Positions 1-64,000 of a stretch of 64,000 nucleotides of DNA are shown in pieces (the first letter of the stretch is position 1; each line of letters opens with the position of its first letter). Under the pieces are notes generated by a model. That model was not told the origin of the DNA. It was given only the letters and a program-made list of their open reading frames with translations, and ran no database searches. Position numbers and translations under genes: made by a program. The stretch comes from a virus. The stretch covers positions 96,001 to 160,000 of the IMG/VR virus record IMGVR_UViG_3300014911_000001. One strand, written 5' to 3'.

Positions 1-363
1 ATCAGGCCACAGACAAATCTGTACATTCCAGAGTCTGTGTTTGTATTGCAATTTGGGCTTGTTTTAAACCCGGGGATCATCAAAAGGTTACCATTGGATT
101 TACATGAGGGGGACATAATTTTGCGGGCTGCATGGAAGGCCGACCTTATACGAACATGTAGTGGTGAATATGTTAAGTCTGCTGATTATATTGATATAGA
201 TGTACCAGATGTGCCGGGCTTCATCATCAAACCAGATGACTATCTAAAGCTAGTTTATCATAGAGACATTATAGCAATTTTCGATGATGTTGATGATTGG
301 GTAAAATTTGTTAAACATTTAAGCAAGATGGAGGGAAACTATGGGAATCAGTGTACCAAATAA
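1..363 (+). CDS. Hypothetical protein (5'-partial; frame open from base 1)
   Basis: Frame 1 has no stop from position 1 to TAA at 361-363; overlaps the next gene. Confidence 0.7.
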   Translation: MRPQTNLYIPESVFVLQFGLVLNPGIIKRLPLDLHEGDIILRAAWKADLIRTCSGEYVKSADYIDIDVPDVPGFIIKPDDYLKLVYHRDIIAIFDDVDDWVKFVKHLSKMEGNYGNQCTK

Positions 364-694
364 TGTTAGGGATGAGATGGAACGGGAGCGCCGTGAAAAG
401 ATTGTGAAGCACGCGCTCCTTGGTGAGTTGATGCCTATTATGATTGATCTTACGCGTCTGGTTACTGAGATACGTCATATACGTAACAAAGATGGTGATG
501 ATGCACCGCATCCTCATGTGAAAGATGATGTGCTTAATAAAATTGATTCATTGGTTGAGTTATTCTTTACGACATATACTGACTTTATGAAGACTTATAT
601 CAATGATATTGATGGTCTTGCGCGTAGTGCGCTTGAGCGTATGATGCAGGAGAGTATGACAATGGGGCCGGGGCCTCGCATACCACGAGAGTAA
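341..694 (+). CDS. Hypothetical protein (helical)
   Basis: 117-aa ORF, GGAGG upstream, tightly coupled to neighbours. Confidence 0.75.
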   Translation: MGISVPNNVRDEMERERREKIVKHALLGELMPIMIDLTRLVTEIRHIRNKDGDDAPHPHVKDDVLNKIDSLVELFFTTYTDFMKTYINDIDGLARSALERMMQESMTMGPGPRIPRE

Positions 695-695
695 T

Positions 696-1040
696 ATGAA
701 ACTATGTAATGGATACTACATAGGTGAGATCATTGATGATGGATCTGTTGCGCAGCGTACTGATATTATTGTGCCATTTGGTGAACTATCATATTTGTTA
801 AAAGTGCGCATTAAGTGGAAGGCATCATCTGCTTTGGTATATTCAAGGAGACAGGACAAGTATATTGACCTACCAGTTTCAGTTAATGTTGGTGATGAGG
901 TGTTGGTTCTGAGGTTTGATACGCAGCCTCTCGCTTTACGTGGTACCAATGAGCCGCGCTTCGTTATCGGTAGGTTGGTAGACATCTTGGGAGTATATGG
1001 GAATAAGAACAATATTGGCGAAAATAAAGAAGCGCGATGA
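696..1040 (+). CDS. GroES/Cpn10-like co-chaperonin
   Basis: Size and pattern match GroES: mobile-loop-like TDIIVP, then PVSVNVGDEVLV and C-terminal VDILGV (cf. GIILP..., P.xVKVGDxVL, xDILAV). Confidence 0.7.
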   Translation: MKLCNGYYIGEIIDDGSVAQRTDIIVPFGELSYLLKVRIKWKASSALVYSRRQDKYIDLPVSVNVGDEVLVLRFDTQPLALRGTNEPRFVIGRLVDILGVYGNKNNIGENKEAR

Positions 1041-1491
1041 GGCTGCTAATTATGATTATAAATACGAGAAAAAATATGGAATCCTGAGACGTAAAGGGCG
1101 CAAGTGGGATTCGGAACAGGAACGTATATTATATAGTATATTAAGGCAGATATATACAGGTCGTAAGATCTTTAACCATGTTCGTTTTGAGGAAGCGCCG
1201 ACCCTTGAGTATGATTTTTTTATACCTGATGAATTCCTTGTTATTGAATATAACGGTCAGGAGCATTACTGTGTCGTTGAAGGTATGACCGTGTATGACT
1301 TCTATGGTCGTGTGTATCGCGATCGTTGTAAATTGAATAATGCTTGCAAGCGTGGTTATACATACATACCCATTCCATTCGATATAGGTCTTACTGTTGG
1401 TATAGTAAAGAAGTGGATTGATAGTGGGTGGGATAAGGAAAAGGTAATACAACATTATCTTGAGTACTACGAAAAAAACAAATTCGGATAA
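997..1491 (+). CDS. Vsr/DUF559-like PD-(D/E)XK endonuclease (free-standing, possibly homing)
   Basis: SEQE...LEYDFFIP..LVIEYNGQEHY...RDRCK...GYTYIPIPF motif series typical of Vsr-like endonucleases. Confidence 0.8.
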   Translation: MGIRTILAKIKKRDEAANYDYKYEKKYGILRRKGRKWDSEQERILYSILRQIYTGRKIFNHVRFEEAPTLEYDFFIPDEFLVIEYNGQEHYCVVEGMTVYDFYGRVYRDRCKLNNACKRGYTYIPIPFDIGLTVGIVKKWIDSGWDKEKVIQHYLEYYEKNKFG

Positions 1492-2107
1492 GCTTGCGCG
1501 GGCTTATGATGAAACAATCCAGCGTGTCTGGGATACATTCTTCCCTGGTGTTGATATTGATGTTGTTGTTGGTATGAGGGATGCTGCATCTGTTGCCAAG
1601 CTACCTATCAAAAAGTGTACCCCGGCGTGTCCATTATATGATCAATGTGAGGTAAGGAAGAAGTATTCGCCATCGTATTGCCCTATGGAGTTTGTTAAGT
1701 TCTTTGAGCAGTTGACTAACATGGCAAAAGAGCTTGATATTGATCCTGATAATGTAGTTGAGGCATCGCGTGTATTGGATTACCAGTTGTTATCTCTTAT
1801 ACAGGATGCGATATTGGAAAAGATACAGCATAATGGGGTGAGTCAGTATGTTCCTGTTGTATCGGGGGAGGGTGTTATAGCGGAGGTTGAGGAGGTATCA
1901 CCGTTTGTGAAGACGCTTATGGAGATTGCGAAGTTGAAAGGTAAGATACTAGAGGAATTTTTAGCAACGCGTCAGTCGAAGAAAAAATTTGGTGAGGGTG
2001 AGGATAGTGATCCCGCGCGCTACTTATCAGGTTTGCCTGTTGTTGATGCGGAGATTGAGGATGTAGATACTGAGAAGAAGGATGATGATGATAAAAAAGC
2101 AGATTAA
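1460..2107 (+). CDS. Putative terminase small subunit (Cys-rich Zn-binding N-terminus)
   Basis: CxxxCxxxxxC...CP cluster, helical core, acidic tail; lies upstream of TerL; positional inference. Confidence 0.5.
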   Translation: MSTTKKTNSDKLARAYDETIQRVWDTFFPGVDIDVVVGMRDAASVAKLPIKKCTPACPLYDQCEVRKKYSPSYCPMEFVKFFEQLTNMAKELDIDPDNVVEASRVLDYQLLSLIQDAILEKIQHNGVSQYVPVVSGEGVIAEVEEVSPFVKTLMEIAKLKGKILEEFLATRQSKKKFGEGEDSDPARYLSGLPVVDAEIEDVDTEKKDDDDKKAD

Positions 2108-2612
2108 AATATTAGAGGGACTTGCCAAGTCAGGTAAGGAATTTGTCAGGCGTTTTGGACAGTTCTTGCGTGGTTCACATAATTTAGAGCCGCTGGTTGA
2201 GTTACCCGCGAAGACATTTAGGAAGCCGCCGCCTCTGCTTCTGTTCAAGAGATCGGCGGGCTTAATAGAAACGAATATTGTTAAACCTAAGTTGGTAAGA
2301 TCTACGGTAAGACGGTTGGAATATGCTATGACCCAAGATGTAATTAAGCGGATGCGGCAGAAGCTTAATTATAAGTTTTTGAAGAATAAGGTCGTACCGT
2401 TGACCAAAAATGTAAGAAGGGCGCGGCTTTGCACATCTTATAAACTTATAAGACCAAAATCGACAGGAAGGCATATACGTGATGTGATGTCTATACAAGG
2501 TGCAGGTATTGCTTGGGAGAATTTACATAAGCAGTCTTTAAATAAATTAGAGGCAACAAGGATAGGTTTTAGACCGAGGGTCAGGAAGCAATGGATAGGT
2601 TCGATCAGTTAA
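2082..2612 (+). CDS. Highly basic hypothetical protein
   Basis: K/R-rich 176-aa ORF overlapping both neighbours. Confidence 0.6.
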   Translation: MMMIKKQIKILEGLAKSGKEFVRRFGQFLRGSHNLEPLVELPAKTFRKPPPLLLFKRSAGLIETNIVKPKLVRSTVRRLEYAMTQDVIKRMRQKLNYKFLKNKVVPLTKNVRRARLCTSYKLIRPKSTGRHIRDVMSIQGAGIAWENLHKQSLNKLEATRIGFRPRVRKQWIGSIS

Positions 2613-3373
2613 ATTTATATGCGCAGCAGACTGATGAGTATTTCCTTCCCGAAGATAAATATAGACCGTTGCCGTGGAGGGTTGCTGCTAGTTATGTAGG
2701 TCTTGTTAAGTCACCTTTTACGGCAAGTATTGGTATTGGTAAGGCCTATGCTACCTTAGCAGGCACATCAATCTTATATCATTATGTGTATCGTCCCAAG
2801 ATATGGCGTACTGCTGTTAAGACGGGAGAACTTAAGTGGGTTGGTTTCCCGGGCTTCAGAGGATTTGCGCAGGGTCCACGTGGTGGTGTGATGCGCAAGA
2901 TGGGTCATTGGTTGTTTGGGCAGATGTTGAGACCTGTGTTGAGTACACAGGCTTATGATATGTATAGGAAGCGCGGCTTAATGGGTGTTGCCATGTATAT
3001 GAAGCAGGCTGGTAAGCCGGGTCTAGCGAGAAAGATTTATAAGGTTGCTCGTGTTTTGGGTGGTGGTACCATTAAGGTTGGACGTGTTGCTGCAAGCTTG
3101 GGTCGTACTGCTGCTTGGGGTATGCTTGCGTATGATGTTGTTCGTGGTGGTATAGCACTAGCAGGGGCGGCTATGAACCGCGGGCTTCGCATTCTGGATA
3201 GAGTGCATACTACATTAGTGCGTCTCAGGAGAAATCAATTACCGGAGGCCTATAGGATGCCTCAAGCGGCAACACTAAGGTCGTTGGCATTACAAGAGAT
3301 TCATACATCACGTACTAATGTAAGAAGTGTTTTACTGGGTAATGAGGCAGCTTATATGCATAGGGCATTATGA
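2591..3373 (+). CDS. Basic, Gly/Ala-rich hypothetical protein (possible internal virion protein)
   Basis: 260-aa ORF with amphipathic/hydrophobic helices; ends LGNEAAYMHRAL. Confidence 0.7.
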   Translation: MDRFDQLNLYAQQTDEYFLPEDKYRPLPWRVAASYVGLVKSPFTASIGIGKAYATLAGTSILYHYVYRPKIWRTAVKTGELKWVGFPGFRGFAQGPRGGVMRKMGHWLFGQMLRPVLSTQAYDMYRKRGLMGVAMYMKQAGKPGLARKIYKVARVLGGGTIKVGRVAASLGRTAAWGMLAYDVVRGGIALAGAAMNRGLRILDRVHTTLVRLRRNQLPEAYRMPQAATLRSLALQEIHTSRTNVRSVLLGNEAAYMHRAL

Positions 3374-3717
3374 GAGCATTACGTAGATTAAGGGAAATAT
3401 ATAATAGGCCGCAGATAGCACCACGGAATGTTTACCATTTTGTTGATCCTTTAGCTCGTGTCAAACGGTTACGGTTGTGGAGGGGTCGATTAGTTAACAG
3501 TCAAGGCAAAAAGGTTGTTAACAAGATTTTAACATCTATACAGCGCAGGAGGCCGCGGGCTTCAATGGCGTTGAGTCGTAAATTGCTAAAATTAACCAAA
3601 CGCAGCTGGATTGGATCGCGGCTTAGTCATTTTATGGTCTCAAAGGGGCGGCTTTGTAAGTGGGTTGGTGTATTAAATGTATTGAAGGATGCTATAAGAG
3701 TTAGGATGATAGCATGA
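3370..3717 (+). CDS. Highly basic hypothetical protein
   Basis: 115-aa R/K-rich ORF with ATGA overlaps at both ends. Confidence 0.6.
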   Translation: MRALRRLREIYNRPQIAPRNVYHFVDPLARVKRLRLWRGRLVNSQGKKVVNKILTSIQRRRPRASMALSRKLLKLTKRSWIGSRLSHFMVSKGRLCKWVGVLNVLKDAIRVRMIA

Positions 3718-4439: not shown

Positions 4440-4440
4440 T

Positions 4441-6897
4441 ATGGAAGGGAAAAGGTTATCATTAAAAGAGCTAAGTGCTGATGAACTTTTGCGCATACGC
4501 AAATCCGCTTCTTACTTTGTTGAATTATTCCTGCGTGATCCAACCGACCCGCGCCGGCCTCTAAAACTCTACGATTACCAGCGTGAGGTTTTGGATTATC
4601 CCGGTAAGAAGGTTGTTATAAGAGGTGGCCGTGGTGTCAGTAAAACCACGATGATGGCATGGAAGGCATTACACCGTGCCTTCACGATACCAAGGCATGT
4701 TATTATTTATTTAGCACAATCGGAGACGATGCTGCTCAGATTTTTTACTGATTACCTTGACCGCTTCATTACAGATTCACCTCTAAGTAAATCAAAGGTT
4801 GCCTACCGCAAGCAGCCTCAGTATGAGATTGTATTGAGTAATGAGTCAAAAATTTTGGGGTTTGTTGGTAATTCCACGCAGACAATCAGAGGCCCGCGGG
4901 CTGGTACCATTCTTATTGATGAATGTTTTCACGGTATGACGAAGGTCTTAACACAGCGCGGGCTTATTCCCATCAGTCGTGTTAGGGATGGTGATTATGT
5001 TCTTGATGCTGATAGCAAATGGGTGCGTGTTATCCGTGCTGCGATGACGGGTGTTAAAGAAATGTGGGTTATTGAGCTACCTATATCAGATGAAAAATTG
5101 GTTGTTACACCTAATCATCCTGTTTTAACAAAGGATTCAGGATTTCAGCCTCTTAATATAGTTGATGAGATACCGATTAGTTGTCGTTATTATGAGCCTT
5201 TTGAGTATCCTAAGGAAGCGGCGCTGGCGCTTATTTATGCACGATATATAAGCGAGCGTGAATCGCTTGTATTTAATAATGAAGGTGTGCGGCTTATTAT
5301 ATCTGGTTATCCCAGATTCCGCACATTTTATGAGCGTTTCACGGCGGGCAGACATATTAATCCTGTGCTTATTGAGAAGGATTTTATAGACGGAAAAATT
5401 GATCAGCGTCTTTTTGTATATTATCTAGCTGCATTTGTTAATAGATTTCCTAAGATTGTCATCGATTATCTGACGGGGTTGGGTTATAAGGTTATAGCGG
5501 GTTCGCTGGCTAGTGATGATGTACCTAGATATGAAAAGGAGATAGGTTTTCCATTTTTTGAGTCAGGATGGTCAACGATTGTAAAATTAGCTGATAAGTT
5601 GAACCGTGATCCTGTTGAGTTATATAAGGAAATGAATTGGTACAATACAGGCATATTTGTTCCTTATAAGAAGAAATCTACCATTAAGGCGGCGGCTTAT
5701 AACCTTACTACCGAATCGGGGACTTATTGTGTCTTTATTGGTGGATTCCGCATTCCTGTTCACAATTGTGATTATATACCTGAGCGTAAGTTTGTAGAGG
5801 TATTTGGTACAACAATGTCAATGGAGGATGTTGTTATATGGTTATCATCCACACCCAGTCCTAAGAGAGGTTACTTTTGGCGTGCGTGTAATGACGAACG
5901 CATGGGATTCAAGGAGTTTCATTTACCAAGTTGGTTGCATCCGACATGGACGTGGATGAAGGATGCTGAGAGGTTGGGCATACCTATCGAAGAGACAACA
6001 GAGTATCAAACTCGTGTTGAGTTTCCTAACCAAGCTGACTGGTTGCGTGAAATAGCCGCTGAGTTTGTCGATCTTGAGGAGAGTGCTATACCATCAAAAT
6101 ATATAGATGAAGCATTCCAGCATTATGACGGTGAGGTGAGCAGGAAGCGCGGCTTCCGCATCCTTGGTATCGATTGGAATGCGATGGCAGCAGGTGTTGT
6201 TATGGTGTTAGTAGAATACGATAATAAAAATAATGTATTTAGGGTTATCCATTCAGAAACGATTTCTAATGTTGAATATCATCACCAGAAGGCATTGCAA
6301 CGTATTGTTGAGATGGTTAAACAATATCGCATTGATGCTATTGCAGCTGATTGGGGTTATGGAGAAAGTGATATACAGCAGCTTCAGCTTATTGGTAGAG
6401 CTAAAGGGATTCGCGCGCTTACCGACATCATGGCCGTAAAGTTTAATGAAAAGATGAAGATACCGCTTTTTTCGGGTGGTTATGATGAATGCTATGCTAA
6501 GGAATACCTTATGCGGTTGGTCAGGAAGTTATTTGAGATGGGTGCTATCATGCTGCCTCCATCGGAGGATGAAAGGTTGCCTGAAAATTACGCTGATGCT
6601 ACGAATATGTTGGGATACCAGTTGCGTAATTTGCGTGCTAAGGTAACGGGGACCGGTCACCTTACCTATGTTGTTGAACCAGACCATAAATTTGCTGCAT
6701 TTTTGGCTGCTGTCTATGGATTTTATAGGACATTCCAACCGCGTATAGATCCGGTGCAGGGGCTTATTATTTATAATGATTTAGAACGGCAAGAACAGAA
6801 GTTGGATCATGTTCCTAGTATAACATTACAGCCGAAGAAGACACAGCGGTTTGTCCATAGAGTTACAAATAGGTATAAGCCAATAAGAACTGTATGA
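4441..6897 (+). CDS. terL: Terminase large subunit, intein-containing (ATG at 4441 preferred over the TTG at 4351)
   Basis: Q-motif LYDYQRE, Walker A GGRGVSKT, Walker B TILIDE, motif III SSTP, RNase H-like nuclease LGIDWN...DWGYG...DH. Confidence 0.95.
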   Translation: MEGKRLSLKELSADELLRIRKSASYFVELFLRDPTDPRRPLKLYDYQREVLDYPGKKVVIRGGRGVSKTTMMAWKALHRAFTIPRHVIIYLAQSETMLLRFFTDYLDRFITDSPLSKSKVAYRKQPQYEIVLSNESKILGFVGNSTQTIRGPRAGTILIDECFHGMTKVLTQRGLIPISRVRDGDYVLDADSKWVRVIRAAMTGVKEMWVIELPISDEKLVVTPNHPVLTKDSGFQPLNIVDEIPISCRYYEPFEYPKEAALALIYARYISERESLVFNNEGVRLIISGYPRFRTFYERFTAGRHINPVLIEKDFIDGKIDQRLFVYYLAAFVNRFPKIVIDYLTGLGYKVIAGSLASDDVPRYEKEIGFPFFESGWSTIVKLADKLNRDPVELYKEMNWYNTGIFVPYKKKSTIKAAAYNLTTESGTYCVFIGGFRIPVHNCDYIPERKFVEVFGTTMSMEDVVIWLSSTPSPKRGYFWRACNDERMGFKEFHLPSWLHPTWTWMKDAERLGIPIEETTEYQTRVEFPNQADWLREIAAEFVDLEESAIPSKYIDEAFQHYDGEVSRKRGFRILGIDWNAMAAGVVMVLVEYDNKNNVFRVIHSETISNVEYHHQKALQRIVEMVKQYRIDAIAADWGYGESDIQQLQLIGRAKGIRALTDIMAVKFNEKMKIPLFSGGYDECYAKEYLMRLVRKLFEMGAIMLPPSEDERLPENYADATNMLGYQLRNLRAKVTGTGHLTYVVEPDHKFAAFLAAVYGFYRTFQPRIDPVQGLIIYNDLERQEQKLDHVPSITLQPKKTQRFVHRVTNRYKPIRTV
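4924..5766 (+). mobile_element. Intein (281 aa) in TerL, inserted immediately after Walker B DE
   Basis: Starts CFHGMTKV, block B VTPNHPV, block F AYNLTT, ends VHN followed by +1 Cys; splicing restores TILIDE-CDY. Confidence 0.92.
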
Positions 6898-12802: not shown

Positions 12803-12803
12803 T

Positions 12804-14150
12804 ATGGCTATAAAATATAGGGATGAAGATGGTAATCTTATTATAGAGGGTGTTGAAATATCACATCCCAATGTAGTTAATGATAATTTTAGGTTCTATG
12901 TTAATGCGGCTGAAAAAATAAATACTCTTTTGGAGCCGGCTCCTGTACCAGTGCTTTTATATCATCAGGATCATGTAGATCCGATAGGAGAGGTGAAGGA
13001 TGCTAAGTTTACTGACTCGGAGTATGTTGAGGGTGCAAAAGCTATTAGTGCTACGCTTGTAATAAAGGATGAGGAGGCGGCTAAAAAGTTTGAAAAAGGT
13101 TTATATAAGAGGTTTTCTATTGGGACAAAACCGAAGAAGGTTGTCTGCAGCATATGTGGCAAGGAACGTGGTGAATGTGAACATATAGTAGGCAAAATTT
13201 ATGATGGCAAGCTTTGTTATGATAAGGTTTTCGTTGATAGATTTCTGGAGGTATCTGTTGTTAATATTGCAGCTGATAAATTTGCTGTATTACACGAGAA
13301 GGATGATTTGAAAGATGCCCTTTTTGACGAAATAAATTTAGAATTAGACACGGAGGAAGATATGGCAGATAAGGACAAAACGATTGATACAGATTTCGTT
13401 GAATATGCTGAGAATATTTTAGGGGAGGATCTTAGTGAGGAGGAATTGAATGATCTTGAAACGATTATAGCGGGGCTTGATGAATGTGATGAGTGTGGTG
13501 ATGAGGATGTTGAAGATAGCGAGACAGAGGATAGGAAGCTTCCTCCTGCGGGATCAAAAGCACGTAAGAAAATGAAGACCACATTCTGCGGTCCTAATAA
13601 GACATTTCCTGTTCCTGATTGTAAACATGGTGCTGTCGCGTTGGCGATGCTTAATTGGCCGCGTGTCAAAGCAAAGTATAAAGGCCAGATTTCGAAGATA
13701 CGCGCTTGCATAATGAGAGTTGGCCGCAAGCTTGGCTGCGCATATGCGAAGAAGAAAAAGGATGAGCTTCAGGCAGCTCTTGATGATCTCAAGCAGATTG
13801 TTGATTCTATGAACCAGGCGCCGGCTTCACTCGATATAGATTTCACCCCCATTAATGAGCGTTTTGACCGTATTGAGGAAACGCTGGCTGAATTGGTGGC
13901 ACTTATGAAGGATCTTATAAAAGGTATAACGGATAAGATGACAGTACCTGTGCCTGTTAAGGAATATGCTGCTGGTGGCAAGCTTCTTGATGAGATTAAG
14001 GCATCACTTAGTGAAGCCGTGAAGGAAAACACTGATAAAATATTGGAGTTTTTATCCAAAGCTACATCGGAAACCGATGATACGAAGACCGATGATGAGG
14101 TACCTAATAAGGTACTTGATGGAAGTGTGTTTGGGAAAATAAAATCGTAA
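12804..14150 (+). CDS. Prohead protease fused to scaffold-like C-terminus
   Basis: PVLLYHQ...PIG, RFSIG, Zn-finger CSICG...CEH...C, EVSVVNIAAD (HK97-type protease); acidic linker; coiled-coil C-terminus. Confidence 0.85.
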   Translation: MAIKYRDEDGNLIIEGVEISHPNVVNDNFRFYVNAAEKINTLLEPAPVPVLLYHQDHVDPIGEVKDAKFTDSEYVEGAKAISATLVIKDEEAAKKFEKGLYKRFSIGTKPKKVVCSICGKERGECEHIVGKIYDGKLCYDKVFVDRFLEVSVVNIAADKFAVLHEKDDLKDALFDEINLELDTEEDMADKDKTIDTDFVEYAENILGEDLSEEELNDLETIIAGLDECDECGDEDVEDSETEDRKLPPAGSKARKKMKTTFCGPNKTFPVPDCKHGAVALAMLNWPRVKAKYKGQISKIRACIMRVGRKLGCAYAKKKKDELQAALDDLKQIVDSMNQAPASLDIDFTPINERFDRIEETLAELVALMKDLIKGITDKMTVPVPVKEYAAGGKLLDEIKASLSEAVKENTDKILEFLSKATSETDDTKTDDEVPNKVLDGSVFGKIKS

Positions 14151-14176
14151 ACTAAGTAATATTATAGGAGGAAATT

Positions 14177-15376
14177 ATGGCAACACTTAGGCCTGAAGGT
14201 TATTACCGTAATATGGCGCTTCGTGACATTCCGTGGAAGCATAAGCGGAATGTCGTTCCTTCAATAGGTGTTATAGCGGATATAAGAGCGGTTGGTCCGT
14301 TTGCACCACATCCTGCCCTGCCAACAGCGTGGATTAATAAGGTTGATGAGAGACCATTTGTCATACCTGTTGGTAAGATTGTATGTGTGGTGCCTATAGA
14401 TTATTCAACAGCGAAGACACTTGGCAGAACAGATCTTTATACAGAGATGATATATCGTTCTGGGGAGAAATCTACTTATAAATGGACGATACCTGAATCG
14501 GAGCTGGGTTCAACCACATATGCTGATCCCTATTATGGTTATGGTGGAATACTGGGATTTATGATACCTTTTGGTAGAGGTACCGGAGGTGCTCATTATA
14601 GTCTTACGCCTGGTTATAAAATATCTGGAGAGGATGCTATGCCTTATTTTGTTGAAGGTGAATATGACTATGAAGGTTGGGTCCCATTTGGATTTGTAAT
14701 ACATGATGTGGAGAGGTTTGTTGCAGGGGATGATCTCAACTATAGGACGCGCCAAGCATATCCCATATGGAAGGAAGGGCTTCTTACTCTTCCATTCATG
14801 AATATATTGGGCCTTGTGCATGAACTGGAAGGTGATGATAATATTGAGAGAATAAATGCATGGATTAGGCATGATTTGACATCAATGGAGTCTGAGCCTA
14901 CCAGTTCAAATGTGTATATGACTTATAAATATCTATCTAGATATTATACAGCTGCTGTTGGGAGTGAGTGTTCATCAGATTATGCAGGAATAACCGTATA
15001 TACTGGATATGAATTTAATGTAAGGGTTATGAAATCTGGATATGTTGGTGTGACTTGTCATGGGGATTATCTTCTTACATCAGCATTTTCAGGTACAGAA
15101 ATGTGGTGTGTTGGTACGATTGTTAATGTTGATTATGAATTCCCGAAGAGCTTTATGGAGATGGTTGACGCACCACCTGCTTCAGGAATAGGTACAGCTA
15201 ATGGTGGGATACCAGAGATCGTATACCAGTACATGCATGATTTTGTAGTAATATATAATGAGCTAGCGGGAACAGATACATTGAGTTTGAAACCAGCAGA
15301 TCTGATAAGTTATATAGATAAAGGTTATTTCGGTGCTGCTTATATTTTGGCTGACTTTAATCCTCTTGGTACATAA
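14177..15376 (+). CDS. Putative head decoration/minor capsid protein
   Basis: Between protease and MCP, strong AGGAGG RBS, beta-rich composition. Confidence 0.55.
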   Translation: MATLRPEGYYRNMALRDIPWKHKRNVVPSIGVIADIRAVGPFAPHPALPTAWINKVDERPFVIPVGKIVCVVPIDYSTAKTLGRTDLYTEMIYRSGEKSTYKWTIPESELGSTTYADPYYGYGGILGFMIPFGRGTGGAHYSLTPGYKISGEDAMPYFVEGEYDYEGWVPFGFVIHDVERFVAGDDLNYRTRQAYPIWKEGLLTLPFMNILGLVHELEGDDNIERINAWIRHDLTSMESEPTSSNVYMTYKYLSRYYTAAVGSECSSDYAGITVYTGYEFNVRVMKSGYVGVTCHGDYLLTSAFSGTEMWCVGTIVNVDYEFPKSFMEMVDAPPASGIGTANGGIPEIVYQYMHDFVVIYNELAGTDTLSLKPADLISYIDKGYFGAAYILADFNPLGT

Positions 15377-15418
15377 GATCGTAATAATTTAAGTTTAAAA
15401 TAAATTTGGAGGAGGAAA

Positions 15419-16903
15419 ATGGAAATTTTGAAGGATACACTGTATGAGGCGCTTTTGCACAATGGACGCGTTCAGGTAACTGATAAGCTCCGTGAGGAGT
15501 TTAAGTCCGAGATACCAGAGATTGCTGAGGCGAGTGAGATACGGTTTACACTTCGGGATGTACTTACTAATAGCATGCTTGCGCCTCTCTTCCCTGAGGT
15601 TATAACGGTTATTGTTGAGGACACGATGGAGCCGCTGCTTCTTATAACTAAGTTATATGATGTTGTTAGGGGTATTCCTAATGCCCTTACAGTAAGAATC
15701 CTGCTGCCAACACCGATGCCTGTAGTTAAGCTTTCACCTAATGCTCCCACACCGAACCTTGGAAATCCGTCGCTTCATGAGATAGGTGGTACCGTATCCA
15801 TAACTGCGGAGAAATGGGGTGTTATATGGAGTGTTGATGAGCATGTTATTAAGAACAACCAATGGGATATCCTTAAGATGTCTCTTAGGAATGCTGCTCG
15901 AGCGCTTGCTAGACATAAGGAGAAGCAGGCCTATGAGCACATAAGGCATGGTGGGATAATACTATTCTCGAACTGGAGAAAGAATCATGCTGTTTTCAAG
16001 AACTTCCTCAGGGGGCGTGATATAAAGTTAAGGCAGAACGGTAGCCTTTCACCGAGAGACTTTTTCCAGGGTTATGCGTACTTCCTGCAGAATGAATTTA
16101 TCCCTGATGTTGTTATTATGAACTCATGGTCGTGGCTTGTATTCCTTTACTCACCTCTTACTAGAGAGATTGTTATGAATGGTAATACCATTGCGCCTGA
16201 CTTTACCAACTTTAACATGAGGGTCCGCAGCAGATGGCGTGAGGTATGGAACTCTCTTGGTAAGAAGGGTATTCTTGGTGGCAACAGCCCTGATGATATA
16301 TTTGGTAAGATAGGTCTGAGCATTTTTGAGCCGACGAATGCTCCTTGGAGCTGGAATCCGCTTGGTGTTGAGGTTTATCATAAGCCTTCTTGGATGCCGG
16401 CTGGTATAACATTCCTTATTTCACCATATGCTGATTGGTCGGCCAATGCAACTGATTACATGAATAAATACTTTAGTGGTTGGGACTTTACAGGTGCTCA
16501 GTCGTGGGCAGATACGACAACTCCGAAGGACCCGCTTAATATATTTGCGCACAACGACGCTGCGAATAAGAATGATCCTACGAAGACGACAGGTTTCAAA
16601 GAAGATGGTACTGTGGCAACATCACCTAGTGATGCACGTACTTATGCAGATCCGACGCTTAATCTAACCGATATAATCATGGTTGATAGTTCAGAGGTTG
16701 GAATTCTTTATCAGTATTCAGATCCGACGACTACTAAGTGGTCTGATCCAATGCTGGATATACAGAATAATAAGATTGCTGAGGAATATGGCTTTGCTGT
16801 CAAGTGGGGTGGACGTGCTATAGGTATCTTTGAGGCTGTTGTCATTGATGAGCAGTATACCGCTGAGCTTGTAGCACAGAATGAAATAGCAAAACCGCTG
16901 TAA
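15419..16903 (+). CDS. Major capsid protein (HK97 fold)
   Basis: Very strong GGAGGAGG RBS; KWGVIWSVDEHVI..NQWDI...AARALARHKE; PDVVIMN; C-terminal EEYGFAV; position in the head module. Confidence 0.85.
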   Translation: MEILKDTLYEALLHNGRVQVTDKLREEFKSEIPEIAEASEIRFTLRDVLTNSMLAPLFPEVITVIVEDTMEPLLLITKLYDVVRGIPNALTVRILLPTPMPVVKLSPNAPTPNLGNPSLHEIGGTVSITAEKWGVIWSVDEHVIKNNQWDILKMSLRNAARALARHKEKQAYEHIRHGGIILFSNWRKNHAVFKNFLRGRDIKLRQNGSLSPRDFFQGYAYFLQNEFIPDVVIMNSWSWLVFLYSPLTREIVMNGNTIAPDFTNFNMRVRSRWREVWNSLGKKGILGGNSPDDIFGKIGLSIFEPTNAPWSWNPLGVEVYHKPSWMPAGITFLISPYADWSANATDYMNKYFSGWDFTGAQSWADTTTPKDPLNIFAHNDAANKNDPTKTTGFKEDGTVATSPSDARTYADPTLNLTDIIMVDSSEVGILYQYSDPTTTKWSDPMLDIQNNKIAEEYGFAVKWGGRAIGIFEAVVIDEQYTAELVAQNEIAKPL

Positions 16904-16911
16904 TATAGATT

Positions 16912-16969
16912 AGGCCCGGTCTTCTAGCTCGTTAGACATTGTGATTCTTGTGGCTAGAAGGCCGGGCTT
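16912..16969 (+). promoter_or_regulatory. 17-bp stem-loop just downstream of the MCP stop (attenuator/processing/stabilising hairpin)
   Basis: AGGCCCGGTCTTCTAGC pairs with GCTAGAAGGCCGGGCTT (two G-U pairs), 24-nt loop, no U-tract. Confidence 0.7.
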
Positions 16970-16986
16970 CCTATAGGAGGACTATT

Positions 16987-19923: not shown

Positions 19924-19942
19924 AACATAGGAGTGGGGAAAA

Positions 19943-23227: not shown

Positions 23228-23252
23228 GATTGGTGGAAGGAATATCAAGTAG

Positions 23253-25587: not shown

Positions 25588-27590
25588 TAGTCCGCCGTTT
25601 TGTAAATACTAACATATATAAGAATCTACAGGAGAAGCAGGGCATAACGGACAATGATGGTACTGTTTCCTATAAGCCGGCTGAGGAAACGACTTTTGAT
25701 ATACCTTATTTAGAGGATTTTTATACCCCTGCGCTTATTACGCTTTACTTTGATGGCATAAGGATAGCTGAGGCTGTTTTTGTGGAATATGTTTATAATG
25801 ATCAGAAGATACCTGTTTATGGTTATGGGGATCGTTATGTTCGTGCATTTGAGGAGGGGCATCATTTAATAAGCGGGCGCATGGGGTTTTTATTTAAGGA
25901 GACGGCTTATTTATCGAGTGTTATTGATTTGGTATCAGGAAGCCGGCTTATTACCACACCCGGAGGTGAAAGTGCTGTATATGCATTGCTGCAGAGAGTA
26001 CTGAGCGATCCTGAGGTTAATGAAAAAGTTGAATATATGAGGCAGATTTTGACATCGGTATTTGGGTTGGAGCCCTTCAAGGTTGGGCAGCTTAATGCTA
26101 ATCAGATGATTAATTTATTAAAGATTTATAAGTCTGTTATTTATATGACTGTGAATCCCCGCTATGGCGCCACAGGTCCTTTGGTGACAGAGGCAATGAA
26201 CAGTAGCGAAGCGCTTAGTTCTCCCTCATCGCCACTGGTATGGAAGATCGGCTCGCCTCATGTTATATCGGCAATGTTAGATATGGAGGATGTCTTTGGT
26301 GAGGTGGCTATTGAAGGATTGTGGGAATCAGTGGAAGATGCATTATGGAGTAAGGAGGTGCCGGGCTTAGACATTGCACCCATCGTAGAGCATGATTTAG
26401 GTTATACAGGTTATGGGTATGTAATATCTGACAAAACATTTGATGTTTTTATAAGGTATGGTGCTGATGGATCAAGCATTACAGACCATACAGTTGAGGT
26501 TATCAATGATGTCCATCTTGTATCAAGTGGCAAGAGCATCAATGTTGGCTCGCCTGATCTTGTTGTTGAGGTTTTGGAGTTCATAGCGCGCACTAACAAT
26601 CGGCGGCTTAATATCTACCAGCATAAACAGGTATCGGAGACGGATGAGCTTATTCCACCGCAAATGGATAGTGGTATGAGCGAGGGGAAGAAGTATTTTA
26701 GTTATAAGAAAGAAGAAATGGAGAATGCGAGGGTCGGGGATCAGGAAAAGGAGAAATATAGAAAGCTTTCAGAAGAGGAATTGAAAGAAATGCGGGCTAC
26801 CTTGTGCGGTCGTTGTATTGATGAAAGATGTAGTATCAAGGTGGGTAGTTTTGGGTTTAACACGTTGAAAGATAGCTTGTTTGAACATACAGGTATAACA
26901 TTAGATATTAGCTATCGAGGTGAGACTCATTTTGGTCCTTTGGTCATATATGAAAAACCGACATTTACTTTGAGTGTGGAGAAGACAGTTGATAATTTGT
27001 TGGCTAATATTGCAAAATTATCGCAGGCTGCTACAAGGGGATCATTGGGTGGATTTGTAGTAGAGAAAGGTTTGTTGGAAGTTGTGTGGGGGCAGCATCC
27101 TAAACTTGAGCAGCAGGGCCCTCATAAAGTAAGGACAGTTGGTTGTCCTTTTGCGTTTGCGGAGGCGGTTGTAGAAAATTTGAAGCCATCATTTTGTTTA
27201 CGCTACTTGAATGCTCTTTTAAGGTATAGTGCCCCACCGAGTGCTATTATTGATGATTTGCGTGCTATTTTAGATTATGTTACTTCGCATTCAGGTATCG
27301 CAAGTTTGAAGTTTCCTATAGCTATTGCTATGGCTGGTCATGGTGATGAGTTTAATAAAAACATTTCGCAATATATGAAAGGGGTTCATGTGCCACAATT
27401 TGATGTATATGATGGATTAAAGATAAGTGTAAAAAAAGCACTACTACAAATAAATGAAGGGGAAAATACTCCTTATAAATTGGCTGTTTTGCCGTTGTAC
27501 ATAATTATGATTGATTTAGCTGACCGTGAATCGGTATTGAATTTTAAAAATAAGCTTGACACATGGACATTCCATCATTATTATTACTGA
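25584..27590 (+). CDS. Third tube-fold protein with insertion and C-terminal extension
   Basis: QKIPVYGYG...GHHLISGRM resembles tube motif EKAPLYVLG...GKRSIAGSL; later FDVFIRYG...DVHLVSSGKSI...EFIAR. Confidence 0.55.
   Translation: MIVRRFVNTNIYKNLQEKQGITDNDGTVSYKPAEETTFDIPYLEDFYTPALITLYFDGIRIAEAVFVEYVYNDQKIPVYGYGDRYVRAFEEGHHLISGRMGFLFKETAYLSSVIDLVSGSRLITTPGGESAVYALLQRVLSDPEVNEKVEYMRQILTSVFGLEPFKVGQLNANQMINLLKIYKSVIYMTVNPRYGATGPLVTEAMNSSEALSSPSSPLVWKIGSPHVISAMLDMEDVFGEVAIEGLWESVEDALWSKEVPGLDIAPIVEHDLGYTGYGYVISDKTFDVFIRYGADGSSITDHTVEVINDVHLVSSGKSINVGSPDLVVEVLEFIARTNNRRLNIYQHKQVSETDELIPPQMDSGMSEGKKYFSYKKEEMENARVGDQEKEKYRKLSEEELKEMRATLCGRCIDERCSIKVGSFGFNTLKDSLFEHTGITLDISYRGETHFGPLVIYEKPTFTLSVEKTVDNLLANIAKLSQAATRGSLGGFVVEKGLLEVVWGQHPKLEQQGPHKVRTVGCPFAFAEAVVENLKPSFCLRYLNALLRYSAPPSAIIDDLRAILDYVTSHSGIASLKFPIAIAMAGHGDEFNKNISQYMKGVHVPQFDVYDGLKISVKKALLQINEGENTPYKLAVLPLYIIMIDLADRESVLNFKNKLDTWTFHHYYY
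27556..27584 (+). promoter_or_regulatory. Sigma70-type promoter
   Basis: TTGACA (27556-27561), 17-nt spacer, TATTAT (27579-27584), AT-rich UP-like tract upstream. Confidence 0.7.
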
Positions 27591-28672: not shown

Positions 28673-31600
28673 GCCCTTTCTTTTCCAGAGTGATTTAGCA
28701 CGCATACGCACAGATGAGACATTGCGCAGCCGTTATGGGTGGGGTCGTACACTTTTGCGTTTTGGAGTGGCGATGGCTTCCTTTGCTGTTTTGTCTTATG
28801 GTGCGCGTTCCTTATCGCGTGCATGGCGTGCATTGGCCACATCTGGAGCATTATCACGGAAGTTTGTTGAAGGCGTTAAGGTAGTAAAGAAGTTAGGGCT
28901 TGAGCAGGGTAACTTACTTGATGTAATATTATCAGTATCTAGGCGTGCGCGTCGAGTTGCTTATAAATATGTTAAGTGGTCGCAAGATTATAGGGATGCG
29001 TCGCGGCTTCTGCATTTTGGTAAGGCATTAAGGAAAATATGGAGCGGTGGTAAAGCATCATTAAAGGGTTTTAGGAAGGCGCGTGAGGCTTATCGACGGG
29101 TTGGATTACGAGGTGCATTGTTTGGTGCCTTTTTGCGTGGTGCAGAAAGAGGTGTTGGATTTGCGATTTTATCTTCGGCTGCTGATGCATTAACACATTC
29201 ATTTATAACACCTGCGGATAGAGAGAAGACAAGAAAGTATGGTCCTGTTGCTCGTGTGAAGCGTTTTTTCACTGATGCTGTCCTATTTAGTGGATTACAA
29301 GGACTTTGGGGTGTATCAAAAGTTGCCTTTCCTACCTATATACATAGGTATAGCCCACAAATACAGCGTTTTCTTACCCGCATTGGAGCGCCTACTTATG
29401 TGGCTAAGTTTTATGGATGGAGGCGTCGCTTCTATGATTATCTAATTCGTGCTATAGAATATAAGCAGAAGTTTACTCAGAAATTGCAAGGTGCTAATAT
29501 ATGGCAGCACATAAAGCAGCAGATGAAGGAGCATCCCGGGTTAGGTGCTATTGCAACCTATTTGCGGGAGCAGATAAGGGAAGCTCATCTACATGCTAAG
29601 AAATCGTTTAGGAGGCCGGGTGGATTTCCACCAAGGAGTGGTTATGATACGGTTATAACAATGATGAATTATGCGAAAGAGGTTAATGTTAAGGATCCTA
29701 AGTTTGCAGCGGAGATTGCAGCTCAAGCTGTTGGACGTTATAAAGGTGTGAGTAAGTGGCGGCGGCTTCTTAATATCGAACGTGAAAGGTTGACCAAGAA
29801 GCAGGCTGTTGCTTTCAGGGAGATGCTTGAGAAAATGGGGTTTAGCAAGTCATGGATCGAGACATTAAAGGGGGAGGAACGCAAGTTTTATGAGAATCTG
29901 TATTACCGTGTGATGAGGGGACCATTGTTCCATGGTCCCGGATGGTTTGAAGTAGCCGGGCAAAAGTTTTCACAGTATGAGACGCGTTATTTTGTAAAAG
30001 GAATTCTCCAGAATCTATATGCTGGTCGATGGAGGGGGGTTACACGCATTTTGGCTTCTGCGGCGGGCTTAGACCTCTATGCCAACCGCAGACCTGTATT
30101 TATCTTCCATCCTACCATGGATATTCCGATGAGCGTTCCTATACCGACTGATGAGGGTGTTCGTATGCTACGCTTGGTAACCGAACGTGGTAATGATCGG
30201 GTTCGTCATGGGATTGTATTCTTACAGAATAAATTGTACAGATTATCGCCGACAGAGGAGGGTGGTGAATATTTTGTGGATAGGGTTATAGAGAATGTTA
30301 AATTATATGAGAGCCCGGCTTATAACATATTAAAGAGGGAGTTAACGCAGTATTATATCAAGCAGAGGCGGCGCACGGATGAGATAGGTTTGCGTCCACC
30401 CGGTGAATATGTTAGGGATATAATCAGGAAATTATCGCGGGGTGTTGATAAGGCTAGCTTAGAGGAATTGGTTAATGTATATAAGTCAACCCGTTCGACG
30501 GCCCATATTATCTTTGGTAAATTGTTATCAAAGAAGGAGGTCCGTGAGGTTGCATCGCAGATCTTGGAGCAATTAGGCGCGAGTAGAGCGCAAAGGATCT
30601 TGCAGATGGATGAGGCATCATTAATCAGGGAACTTGAGAAGGTTATAGAAAAGCCTGCACAGGTAACGGAGCGGCTTCGTAACAAGTTTATCTATCTTAT
30701 AAATGCATCACGGAGTAGGATGAGGACTATGAAGGATCTTTTGAATCAGGAGTTTATAGGTTCTGGATATGCAGAAGCACGGGCTAGGCATGTTATTGAG
30801 TCGTTCTTAATTGAGCAGCATTTGACACCAGAAATAAGGGCGAAATTCTTTAGCAGGCTTGCTGAGGAGCAGTTGATCGGGAAGTGGATAAGGAAGCCGG
30901 CTTATACACATTTCTTCAAAGCATTAGCAGAGCTAGCACCTGTTGAGATGGATGCAGAAGCTCTAAGGTCTACTATAAAGGGCGCGCTTAATGATATTGT
31001 AGTCGGTTGGAAAAAATTACCTACAGTTGATCCATTTAGGCCGATATCTGCCTTATTCCAGTATGGTGGATTGGGTATCCACAGGTTATTTGAACCTACC
31101 ATAGAAGGTATACGGGTAATGGGTACTACAGTACCATTTACTGTTGTTAGAGAAGGTATGAGTCCATTTAAACGGTATACGGTAACAAGTTTATTGTTTT
31201 CCCATCACTTACGGCGCATATGGGGATTTATGGATTATGTAAGCAAAGCTCCTCGCAAGTTTCCTATTATCAGGCATTTATTAAGGCGATTAGACCCTAG
31301 ATTGGCTGATACGGCGCATATCTTTCCATTTGAGACTAATACTACTGGTTGGACGGCTTCAGATATGATAAAGAATTTATGGAAGCCGGCGGCTACATTA
31401 TTGGCATTAGGTGTAGGATATAAGGCTGTTGATACATTCTTTGATGAAAGTGGTTTATTTGAAGGGACTGCATTAGGAGAGGGGTTGACACCTGCTATAC
31501 TGGATGCATATGCATTAGGTCGTCTTTCCTTGGCAAGAGTATTGGATATTGCAGGTGTAACTGATGCAGCGCGGTATTTAGAGGGATTAATGCCGGGGTC

Positions 31601-55601: not shown

Positions 55602-55602
55602 T

Positions 55603-57228: not shown

Positions 57229-57242
57229 ATTTTATGTATAAT
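57215..57242 (+). promoter_or_regulatory. Possible sigma70-type promoter for the fibre operon
   Basis: TTGAAA (57215-57220), 16-nt spacer, TATAAT (57237-57242), followed by a GGAGG RBS. Confidence 0.5.
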
Positions 57243-57259
57243 AATATTGGAGGGTTAAC

Positions 57260-61428: not shown

Positions 61429-61840
61429 TATTGGCGAGACAGCCATTATACCGGTTTTATTTTTTGATGAATCGTATAGTTTGATGGATCCTGTTGAATT
61501 GGAAGGAGAGTGTGTTACTCTTACGATGTATCGTCTTGATGCAGCGCCGTCCGTAGCAAAGTTTATTGATGACTTTAGATGGATACACACAGGAGCTGCG
61601 GGCTTATATGATCTGGAGGTCATTGTTGAAGAAAATATACTAAGTGGTGGAGATTATTATATTGGGGCAACGAGATATGATGTGGGTATTTATGCATTGA
61701 AGGTTAAGCCGCGGCTTCCTGGCACTTATTATATTGTTGTAGAGGCTCATGCATCTGGTCTTGCTAGCGAATGTGTTTTACAAACCTTTACTGTAAGATT
61801 CATAGAGAAGAGAGATCCATCATTATTATTAATGGAATGA
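61421..61840 (+). CDS. Hypothetical protein, BppU/Ig-like beta sandwich (ATG at 61421)
   Basis: GGAGGG RBS; GETAIIPV...VGIYAL...PGTYYIVVEA pattern. Confidence 0.6.
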   Translation: MYSIGETAIIPVLFFDESYSLMDPVELEGECVTLTMYRLDAAPSVAKFIDDFRWIHTGAAGLYDLEVIVEENILSGGDYYIGATRYDVGIYALKVKPRLPGTYYIVVEAHASGLASECVLQTFTVRFIEKRDPSLLLME

Positions 61841-62241
61841 GTGAGTTATCAACAGCGCGCGGGCTTCACCGTATAGTAATATCATTACCTGATGATACAT
61901 ATACGGCAACTATAAAGCGATTTAAGGATTCGTTATTGTATGAGGAGTCAGTTAATCTCGAGAAGCTTGATACAGAAAAATATCTTCTGGAATTCGTTGA
62001 TAAATCGAGTGATGACGGCTTGATATTTATCCAAGTTGTTAATTCTGTTGGTGATGTAGTGGCTTTTGAGGCTATTGGGGTGAGTGAGGTAAAAACGGAT
62101 GTGTTGTGGTTAGTTGGTTATGCAGATACCTATGGTGTGCGTTATCCATTGGCAAAGGATGCATTTGTTATATTAAATCATAGTGATTTACATTATCTGA
62201 TAAGGAAGAAATTAAAAGGTAACAGGTTTGGGAGGTCATAA
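61837..62241 (+). CDS. Hypothetical protein (ATG at 61837)
   Basis: ATGA overlap with the upstream stop. Confidence 0.6.
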   Translation: MSELSTARGLHRIVISLPDDTYTATIKRFKDSLLYEESVNLEKLDTEKYLLEFVDKSSDDGLIFIQVVNSVGDVVAFEAIGVSEVKTDVLWLVGYADTYGVRYPLAKDAFVILNHSDLHYLIRKKLKGNRFGRS

Positions 62242-62738
62242 TGAATGTTGCGGTTGATAGATTCGTTGTCTTGCCTATAACATTTAGAACTAGTGGTGGG
62301 TATGCTACATTAGATCCATCTACGAATATAGATGTGGACATCACATATCTTCCGAATTTCGATAGTGATGATGGATCGACGGCAGTCAGTACATATAATA
62401 TTTTTAACCCCCTAAGTGACCCGAATGTTTGCATTCTATCCTTCCTGTCATCGAAGAGGGGCATCTATATGGTAAAGGTAACATATACAGGGACTGAAGT
62501 ATTATCAGAACCACCAACTAAGTATTTTGTTGTAACATGTGGTAATGATTATGATCCACCGCTAAAGCATACATATGTATATAATCCTCTAACTGGTAAC
62601 GTATCTGAGGTTCATACAGATTATTATAAAGATAGTGAGAGTACCGAAACCATCTTCAGGAAGAAGATTGTTGGTTTCGTCTATGAAGAGGATGGTGGTG
62701 AAGCACGGCTTAATGAGGTGACGGATAAGAACGAATGA
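62241..62738 (+). CDS. Hypothetical protein
   Basis: GGAGG RBS, 165 aa. Confidence 0.7.
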   Translation: MNVAVDRFVVLPITFRTSGGYATLDPSTNIDVDITYLPNFDSDDGSTAVSTYNIFNPLSDPNVCILSFLSSKRGIYMVKVTYTGTEVLSEPPTKYFVVTCGNDYDPPLKHTYVYNPLTGNVSEVHTDYYKDSESTETIFRKKIVGFVYEEDGGEARLNEVTDKNE

Positions 62739-62968
62739 TACGTAAGGAAAGAGAGACATATGCTGGGGCTGTCTATGTAACTGGTATACCGATGCCTCTG
62801 ACACCGAGGGCATTTGATGGATTATACATTGGGGGGCTTCTTTTGCCTTACTATGTCCCTAATGAGTTCTATGATCGGTTGCAAACAGATGCTGTTAACT
62901 TTATAAATTCTGTTTTTGACTTCTGGAGGCCGGCGGGCTTATGTCGCTACATCTATTTGAAAGATTAG
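62735..62968 (+). CDS. Small hypothetical protein
   Basis: 77 aa, ATGA-coupled. Confidence 0.6.
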   Translation: MIRKERETYAGAVYVTGIPMPLTPRAFDGLYIGGLLLPYYVPNEFYDRLQTDAVNFINSVFDFWRPAGLCRYIYLKD

Positions 62969-64000
62969 GTCTAGGAACAACAGATATAGATCGGACGATC
63001 GATATCCTATTAGAGTTGCGCGATGCGCTTCAGCAGCTATCTAGGTGCGAGAAGCGCAAGCTATTAGAATCATATACTGATTTTGGTGGTTATCCATCTG
63101 ATTTCAAGGAGCTTGTTGCCTTATTAACAAAGATCGAGGCATATGTTGAACTGATTGAACAGCGTTATCCTGTATTTAAGCAGTTCATCGATGATGTTCT
63201 TCGGTCACTTTATGATGTAAGACATCTTACATCTAGTGCTGTTTTTTCCTATATGGATGGTATTAATATCGATTATTACCCAGCGCCTCATCTGTCATCT
63301 GTAACCGAAGAGGTTGATGTTAATGATATAGATGTTAGCGTTGTACCTTATACAGAGGATATTGAAATTGGTGAACATTTTATTGCATGTAGTCTTGAGC
63401 GTCAGGATAACATACAGAAGATTATATTATCTTTTAAATCTCCTATAAAGGCAACGCGGATATGGATGCCGATTTTTGGTGCTAAGGTTAAGAGGTTACT
63501 TATTAATACAGTAAGCGCGGGCTTCGATTACTGGTATGGATACATTGTACCTATACATAGGGTTATTAATGCTGATGATAAGGTAACTATTGTTGTGGAA
63601 ATGATGATGAAGCCGCGCTTCGAGGCTGTTAAGAAGCCGGCTGATGTGTGGAAATTATATAAAAAGCCTACTTGGATTGGAGATGCGGTTATTTTGAAGC
63701 CGCGCTTGGTATTAGATATATCATCAGGCGCGGGGCTTCTTGAAACAACAACACTACCCATGGTATTTGGCGATAATGGTAGTGTTGTGCCGTTTGTTAA
63801 GGTAAATGGAATTTATTTCCCTGCGATTGGTCGTGAATATAATGGGTTACCATTTCCATTTCACTATGATGGGCGATATTATTATTTCCCTATTTATACA
63901 TCTGGTGATTTCACATCTAGTACGCCTCTTATGGGATATCGTACTGAATACAGGTTATTTAAATCATCATCGCTTCCAGAATTATCATATGAGGTCGATT
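62941..64000 (+). CDS. Hypothetical protein (3'-partial; absent from the ORF track)
   Basis: ATG at 62941 (MSLHLFERLGLG...) reads without a stop to the window end. Confidence 0.75.
   Translation, partial: MSLHLFERLGLGTTDIDRTIDILLELRDALQQLSRCEKRKLLESYTDFGGYPSDFKELVALLTKIEAYVELIEQRYPVFKQFIDDVLRSLYDVRHLTSSAVFSYMDGINIDYYPAPHLSSVTEEVDVNDIDVSVVPYTEDIEIGEHFIACSLERQDNIQKIILSFKSPIKATRIWMPIFGAKVKRLLINTVSAGFDYWYGYIVPIHRVINADDKVTIVVEMMMKPRFEAVKKPADVWKLYKKPTWIGDAVILKPRLVLDISSGAGLLETTTLPMVFGDNGSVVPFVKVNGIYFPAIGREYNGLPFPFHYDGRYYYFPIYTSGDFTSSTPLMGYRTEYRLFKSSSLPELSYEVD

Follow-up and report, generated by a model that had tools for sequence, protein, structure and literature searches.

A GC-run word kept by selection throughout an uncultivated phage genome, with the phage's own primase as a possible reader

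Why would a virus with AT-rich DNA carry the same short GC-rich word hundreds of times, within its genes and between them? The question is raised by bases 96,001-160,000 of one 175,796-bp virus contig (IMG/VR record IMGVR_UViG_3300014911_000001), the 64,000-nucleotide stretch analysed here and called the window below. Positions are those of the window unless they are given as genome positions. The word, S(4-9)GCTT[C/A], where S stands for G or C (and M for A or C), is a run of G/C letters closing on GCTT, and it had been noticed in a sequence-only reading of the window, whose GC content is 40.6%. The phage keeps the word by natural selection; its reader would be some DNA-handling enzyme, perhaps the phage's own primase.

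The window contains 305 G/C runs of at least six letters, 102 of which end in GCTTA or GCTTC, while every other ending accounts for at most 8. SSSSGCTTM occurs 141 times, compared to 7.2±3.0 times in dinucleotide shuffles (shuffle maximum 14). The abundance described in the sequence-only reading is thus real, and its estimate of one + strand copy per 0.5-0.7 kb agrees with the measured spacing of ~630 bases per copy. The array and its first member are as follows.

213..63739, both strands: dispersed array of the word S(4-9)GCTT[C/A], supported by shuffle counts, run ends and the logo.
214..222, + strand: first copy in the window, CCGGGCTTC, a typical half-site.

The excess extends to the whole genome and to null models that preserve the encoded proteins. 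In the coding sequences, S4GCTTM was found 264 times in sense orientation, against 19.1±4.5 after shuffling synonymous codons within genes (z=54), and 123 times in antisense orientation, against 20.4±4.3 under the same within-gene shuffle (z=24). Codon-order shuffles gave expectations that were lower still, so that the excess is 14-fold under the synonymous null and 29-fold under the codon-order null; comparison with a codon-preserving null had been proposed in the sequence-only reading, and the word far exceeds it. Several reading frames are used, as had also been claimed: the G of GCTT lies at codon positions 0, 1 and 2 in 53, 105 and 106 of the sense copies, and the word encodes recurrent tripeptides such as AGF, AGL, RRL and AAS. 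Altogether, the genome holds ~440-510 copies (250 on the + strand and 192 on the - strand in the count by strand), that is, one per ~350-400 bp, with a density of 2.9 per kb within genes and 3.2 per kb between genes. Their spacing is Poisson-like (coefficient of variation 1.05), with one site per 0.6-0.9 kb on each strand. The GCCT variant, which had been listed as a less frequent form, is enriched too (3.8-fold). Among the one-letter neighbours of the word, only the C-to-T neighbour S4GTTT is clearly depleted (30 copies versus 63 expected; ratio 0.48; z=-4.3), the others being near expectation. A further over-used string is AAGG followed by four G/C letters, which fills 12.9% of its possible sites on the sense strand versus 2.9% for the reverse complement; this excess is a strand-specific signal distinct from the main word.

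To assess how the copies evolve, they were compared with relatives at 91-99% DNA identity taken from IMG/VR. At four-fold sites, 21 of the 374 G/C letters in motif copies differ from relatives (5.6%), compared to 19.4% of the G/C letters elsewhere and 18.6% of those in unflanked runs (Fisher p=5e-13). Given this difference, the GC run alone behaves as neutral, whereas the flanked word is protected, its G/C letters diverging 3-5-fold more slowly than other G/C letters. A second comparison, with a 147-kb relative (128.6 kb aligned, 3.9% divergent), gave four-fold divergences of 2.7% for the run of G/C letters, 1.7% for the GC core and 0/132 for the TT, against a background of 9-14%. In the same comparison, divergence was about half of the background at -15..-7 and +8..+15 and reached background level beyond these positions, so the footprint of synonymous constraint spans ~-15 to +15, that is, ~30 bp. 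Whole sites were retained in 316 out of 336 cases for the word and in 480 out of 598 for control words (p=2.5e-9), with similar figures for sense (204/215), antisense (94/100) and intergenic copies (18/21). The sequence-only reading had placed the selection at the level of DNA and not of protein, and this view is upheld by the excess over the codon-preserving null, the use of three frames, the intergenic density and the 3-5-fold lower synonymous divergence.

Sites are gained and lost relative to the 91%-identical relative by substitutions, not by indels. Some new sites consist of clustered AT-to-GC changes, mostly synonymous, such as the one at genome position 118,682, with four changes within nine bases, three of them synonymous; in the PhoH gene, one site corresponds to a K-to-R codon change without a gap. 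At greater distances, a contig of 34% GC, whose capsid protein is 39% identical, bears the word, mostly as S(4-7)GGCTTC, and the 13 sites that can be aligned all fall at positions where the present genome has none. The word is absent from a relative at 29% identity and from contigs encoding primase-helicases that are 25-30% identical, and a PolB search detected no ortholog on the contig of the 39%-identity relative. An exact scan of IMG/VR for GAAGCCGCGGCTTC returned mostly unrelated single matches, the flank rule appearing only in contigs of this phage group. The word was found in two phage lineages only. Given the retention of sites among close relatives, the 0 of 13 shared positions and the word-free distant relatives, the word is lineage-specific, its density being kept while its positions turn over. 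The comparisons show a lineage-specific DNA signal, maintained by selection, that acts through its density and not through position.

The next question is whether the word is polar. In the window, where all genes lie on the + strand, 102 of the SSSSGCTTM copies are on the + strand and 39 on the - strand (2.6:1), and genome-wide the raw bias tracks the gene strand in both divergent arms, the majority orientation being the sense strand. We counted as opportunities all positions where the protein sequence permits the word by synonymous choice. There are 1,113 sense opportunities, of which 25.3% are used, and 570 antisense ones, of which 23.5% are used, compared to 2-4% for control words; this equality also holds region by region. 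The proteins of a word-free relative likewise offer 1.5 times more sense than antisense opportunities. The strand polarity reported in the sequence-only reading therefore stands as a raw count, but it nearly vanishes per opportunity, and the two orientations are equally conserved: the raw 2.6:1 bias is mostly a coding effect. A modest residual polarity is possible, because relative to the shuffle null the over-representation of sense copies is about double that of antisense copies. Among intergenic copies, 12 are co-oriented and 8 anti-oriented. In the 39%-identity relative, the structural module shows an excess (18/170 versus 3/122), and the strand-switch region has a ratio of 10:9. The skew of 72:28 in the window, lower elsewhere, stays below the one-strand skew of more than ~80% used for KOPS/AIMS. 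Both orientations work, and a polar signal of the Chi/KOPS type is therefore weakened, leaving duplex recognition or a single-strand signal on both strands. The Chi/KOPS/HIP1-like polar signal that had been put forward as one candidate role is argued against by the equal usage and conservation, the intergenic 12:8 and the 10:9 in the relative. Separating a strand signal from a coding artefact in this manner matters for any motif in one-directional gene arrays.

The letters that are actually specified are few, namely GCTT[C/A] and a G at -1, which is present in 70-80% of copies. Run length before GCTT[C/A] follows a bimodal distribution, with a decaying background at 0-3 G/C letters and then a mode at 5-6 (range 4-9). 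The sequence of the run is free, 31 of the 32 possible G/C pentamers occurring before GCTT, with frequent CpG/GpC steps and few homopolymers. Separate logos for the sense copies and for the antisense copies give the same picture, with many purines and few Ts at -10..-7, C or A at +4, A at +5 and T at +6. On the motif strand, the ~25 nucleotides 3' of the word are poor in G and rich in C at unchanged GC content, with a (G-C) shift per nucleotide of -0.049 for sense (p=8e-9) and -0.036 for antisense copies (p=0.0035). This shift was not seen at unflanked GC runs or at GCTT without a run; in the 39%-identity relative, no flank skew was detected with an underpowered sample of 23. Among the ~500 copies, 59 runs are two-sided, carrying AAGC at the left end and GCTT at the right, a count that is not above independence. 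The exception is the exact 12-mer AAGCCGCGGCTT, whose 12 copies have flanks, genes and frames unrelated to one another, nine lying at genome 12-93 kb. The two-sided copies of the window are these.

2968..2980: two-sided copy GAAGCGCGGCTTA, two half-sites on one common GC run.
25939..25950: two-sided palindromic copy GAAGCCGGCTTA.
30893..30904: another palindromic copy GAAGCCGGCTTA, likewise two-sided.
61705..61718: perfect two-sided copy TAAGCCGCGGCTTC, the only member in the window of the 12 AAGCCGCGGCTT copies.

The sequence-only reading had found the word scarce in the capsid and decoration genes, and the longest gap of the genome does lie there, between copies at 13820-13828 and 16962-16970, although its length is just marginally above Poisson expectation when taken alone. 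It had also placed a copy at 5688 inside the TerL intein. TerL (4351-6897) has 848 amino acids, with a Hint-type intein of ~245 amino acids after residue ~191 (Walker region) that covers residues ~192-436, its bounds being the blastp gap against the intein-less 605-residue TerL of a distant relative. Two copies do lie inside the insertion, whereas the cited one, which starts at 5691, is at or just past its end.

4958..4966, + strand: copy within the TerL intein insertion, at amino acid 203 of the 848-residue open reading frame (ORF) 4351-6897.
5215..5223, - strand: antisense copy within the intein insertion, at amino acid 289.
5691..5699, + strand: copy cited as 5688; it falls on amino acid 447, where the intein ends C-terminally or just beyond.
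13829..16961: longest word-free stretch of the whole genome (3,142-bp gap, 13,824-16,966), over the decoration-protein and major-capsid genes.

Nowhere in the genome are copies packed more densely than in a TnpB/IS605 OrfB-type gene (genome 74,808-76,052, minus strand; Cas12f-like TNB, OrfB_IS605 and HTH domains), with ~8 copies in 1.2 kb. Given that density, this mobile-element gene has been rewritten like the resident genes.

The + strand of the window is strongly G-excess, and the proteins encoded on it include TerL, a portal protein and a Phage_capsid_4-type capsid protein, as well as several proteins of 1,300-2,350 amino acids without an assigned family. Four long ORFs lie in series.

28650-51084: four giant ORFs (1,943, 2,353, 1,798 and 1,337 amino acids).

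For the two of these that were scanned, of 2,353 and 1,798 residues, PHROG gave no match at E<=1e-5. Outside the window, the genome encodes a primase-helicase with a Toprim/DnaG core and a DnaB-like part, a family-B polymerase (PolB), a DEAD/SNF2 helicase, a RecA-like protein, a ligase carrying a 3'-phosphoesterase-like domain, a class II-like ribonucleotide reductase, PhoH, TnpB, a UDG-family protein, a Cas4/PD-(D/E)XK exonuclease, RNase H, dUTPase and glycosyltransferases; a search of the genome for tRNA genes found none. One of these genes, at genome 82,805-84,709 among the DNA-metabolism genes, encodes a 634-residue fusion of GT4-type and GT2-type glycosyltransferases, for which sugar modification of DNA bases is possible. 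The primase-helicase and the Cas4/PD-(D/E)XK exonuclease genes adjoin in divergent orientation (genome 15,069-18,441), and this neighbourhood recurs on an unrelated contig of 60% GC; the two look like a conserved replication-recombination pair. A 20-kb block (genome 55,000-75,000) has a GC content of 44-48%, compared to 37-42% elsewhere, and many short minus-strand ORFs. INPHARED phage records gave no match by DNA or by capsid protein, and a TnpB search of GTDB genomes for a host returned only an uninformative 28% match, in a Runella metagenome-assembled genome. Near-identical DNA is present in Logan contigs from runs labelled as hydrothermal-vent, marine-sediment and marine metagenomes, and at least half of the sampled words are present in four Logan runs, one of them possibly the source run. 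The phage lineage is deep-branching and uncultivated, from vent and sediment metagenomes.

What, then, reads the word? The best single candidate, one of the roles suggested in the sequence-only reading and to which we give a rough probability of 0.3, is that the word is a template site at which the phage's DnaG-type primase-helicase would make GC-clamped primers. Each copy would act as a single-strand template for this enzyme, encoded at genome 15,069-17,414 on the minus strand, with DNAG_N, Toprim and DnaB_C domains and an N-terminal CHC2-like zinc finger, C-x5-H...C-x2-C. The recognised part would be the CTT/GCTT end, its 3' T being cryptic, in a manner comparable to T7 gp4 on GTC; synthesis would start with ATP opposite T, and the GC run would then be copied into a primer of ~8-10 nucleotides (pppAGC-S5-6). 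Such a GC-rich primer would hold on its template in a 40% GC genome from vent habitats, the 3' flank would be a contact or discriminator region, and sites would be needed on both strands since forks, for example recombination-dependent ones, may pass either way.

Several observations are consistent with a primase as the reader. PolB, RNase H and ligase are encoded alongside the primase-helicase, the per-strand spacing of 0.6-0.9 kb is on the Okazaki scale, and the run has a preferred length of 5-6 instead of following a longer-is-better rule. The polar 3' flank signature, which is motif-specific, and the synonymous constraint, which reaches ~+15, point in the same direction by analogy with T7. 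If forks leave the strand switch at genome ~94 kb, the majority orientation is the lagging-strand template in both arms. A number of results weigh on the other side. A lagging-strand signal should be polar, but the minority orientation is equally enriched per possible site and equally conserved, and intergenic copies are unbiased at 12:8. The spacing is Poisson (coefficient of variation ~1.0), not regularised as the avoidance of primer-less gaps might give. The phages with 25-30% identical primase-helicases lack the word, so co-occurrence does not link it to the enzyme. Finally, we know of no primase site that is enriched genome-wide at such a scale: unlike known sites, which have 3-5 nucleotides and no reported genome-wide enrichment, the phage word has 10-12, is 14-fold enriched and lies on both strands.

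In its build, the word is similar to the sites of T7 gp4 (5'-(G/T)2GTC-3') and Aquifex aeolicus DnaG (5'-CCC-3'), with a short exact core beside the letters that would be copied. The DnaG of that hyperthermophile initiates only on G/C trinucleotides (PMC2532735). In T7, the 10 nucleotides 3' of the primase site govern binding (PMC12839067), which varies up to 10-fold with sequence context (PMC6136900), so that a 3' flank of ~10 nucleotides is functional there, and in the phage word ~10-15 nucleotides are constrained or skewed. We tentatively suggest that the genome may carry a priming code, in which about a quarter of synonymous positions and some amino acids would have been rewritten for primer templates. 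If true, primase specificity would have shaped this genome on a scale not known from any other; lagging-strand (Okazaki) starts would be predictable from sequence alone, and the phage would show how AT-rich DNA can be reliably primed where conditions promote melting.

With a reader other than the primase, the word would belong to a signal class without a described counterpart. It is possible, though doubtful, that it is bound as duplex DNA by a phage or host protein with a role in marking or organising the genome, by condensing it, packing it into the virion or marking it as self. The equal use and equal conservation of both orientations are what duplex recognition predicts, and the 12 exact AAGCCGCGGCTT copies in unrelated flanks and frames, the constrained footprint of ~30 bp and the equal density in coding and intergenic DNA are in agreement with it. 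With the same reserve, GCTT[C/A] might be read by base contacts and the GC run by its shape or stiffness, the back-to-back arrangement GAAGCCGCGGCTTC then binding two molecules; two-sided copies are, however, not above independence, except for the one exact palindrome, and we know of no protein that reads a length-variable run of any G/C letters. No candidate DNA-binding family was detected in the ~150 proteins scanned against Pfam, a weak objection given that most of them lack any family.

Two further proposals are both unlikely. One is a Chi-like signal that would attenuate a host nuclease of the AddAB/RecBCD type or stimulate recombination by the phage RecA-like protein. Both this protein and a Cas4/PD-(D/E)XK exonuclease are encoded by the phage, the density of the word is near that of a 5-mer Chi-like word, and its other strand reads GAAGC(C/G)SSS, resembling the Firmicutes words AGCGG and GAAGCGG (PMC8022716) and being G-rich on its 5' side, the would-be recombinase-loaded tail. 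Chi is nevertheless a fixed sequence, while here any G/C run is accepted and the commonest form is GAAGCC, not GAAGCGG; moreover, Chi is co-oriented with replication, and the word is orientation-neutral once coding potential is considered. The other, which we hold to be just as improbable, is a molecular drive, in which biased repair or gene conversion would restore and create the word without any cellular function. Very-short-patch repair, which acts on CCWGG in E. coli, is a process of this kind. A drive would mimic conservation, orientation neutrality and positional turnover alike, and it would fit the depletion of S4GTTT (30 versus 63), the origin of new sites through clustered AT-to-GC changes and the presence of a UDG-family protein. 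The 14-fold excess, with 25% of possible sites filled, is far beyond known repair biases, and neither the preferred run length nor the polar 3' flank, a G-to-C swap at the same GC content, is expected from deamination repair. In addition, no Vsr-like endonuclease or cytosine methyltransferase was detected among the scanned proteins, many of which are family-less.

Still less probable is a role in virion DNA as sites of programmed nicking or base modification, at which the GC run would hold the two strands together around the lesion. Short words are nicked in T5-, phiKMV- and tf-like phages, and that of T5, R/GCGCRGG, is GC-rich (PMC3517423); the ligase with its 3'-phosphoesterase-like domain and the glycosyltransferases would also suit such sites. 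However, the known nick sites are confined to one strand and range from a few to 14 per genome (PMC3517423), compared to ~440-510 on both strands here, and no nickase or methyltransferase family was detected in the scanned proteins. There is next to no chance that codon usage or protein motifs produce the word as a side effect, despite its commoner sense orientation and recurrent tripeptides, or that it is an RNA-level element such as a hairpin arm: the former is ruled out by nulls exceeded 14- and 29-fold, by the three frames and by enriched and conserved antisense and intergenic copies, and the latter by a folding energy around sites equal to that of control GC runs. Long-range pairing was ruled out as well, complementary AAGC-Sn/Sn-GCTT pairs within 100-3000 nucleotides being at chance level, as was an insertion element of the GC-cluster or RPE kind, the differences from relatives being substitutions.

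Only in a few cases, such as Chi, KOPS and uptake sequences, can the imprint of a DNA-handling machine be seen across an entire genome, and nearly all known cases are cellular. Here, a virus keeps ~500 copies of a word at a measurable cost, in rare GC-rich codons and in capsid genes that avoid it, the latter with a gap that is marginal relative to Poisson. The word is, therefore, a testable handle on a step of replication, recombination or packaging in an uncultivated lineage.

Dispersed functional words are a known kind, and our search of the literature found no described counterpart for a 10-12-bp GC-clamp phage word at one per 350-400 bp that fills a quarter of its opportunities. HIP1 of cyanobacteria and the DUS/USS of Neisseria and Haemophilus are exact 8-12-mers in cellular genomes. 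They share with the phage word a place in coding DNA, the use of several frames, a density of roughly one per kb and maintenance at the level of DNA; the phage word differs in being a half-site with a variable GC run, with the exact palindrome making up only 12 of ~500 copies. The GC clusters of yeast mitochondria and the RPE of Rickettsia are insertions with a sequence of their own. They similarly form GC-rich islands inside AT-rich coding DNA, whereas the phage word arises by substitution and its GC run has no fixed sequence. Chi (E. coli GCTGGTGG; B. subtilis AGCGG; S. aureus GAAGCGG) is over-represented, dispersed, G-rich and intragenic as well (PMC8022716), but it is fixed and strongly oriented with replication, while the phage word is degenerate and orientation-neutral per possible site. 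The nick sites of T5-, phiKMV- and tf-like phages, finally, are also short words in a phage genome, some of them GC-rich, and have no known function (PMC3517423); they occupy one strand with 4-14 sites per genome, whereas about 500 copies are spread over both strands here.

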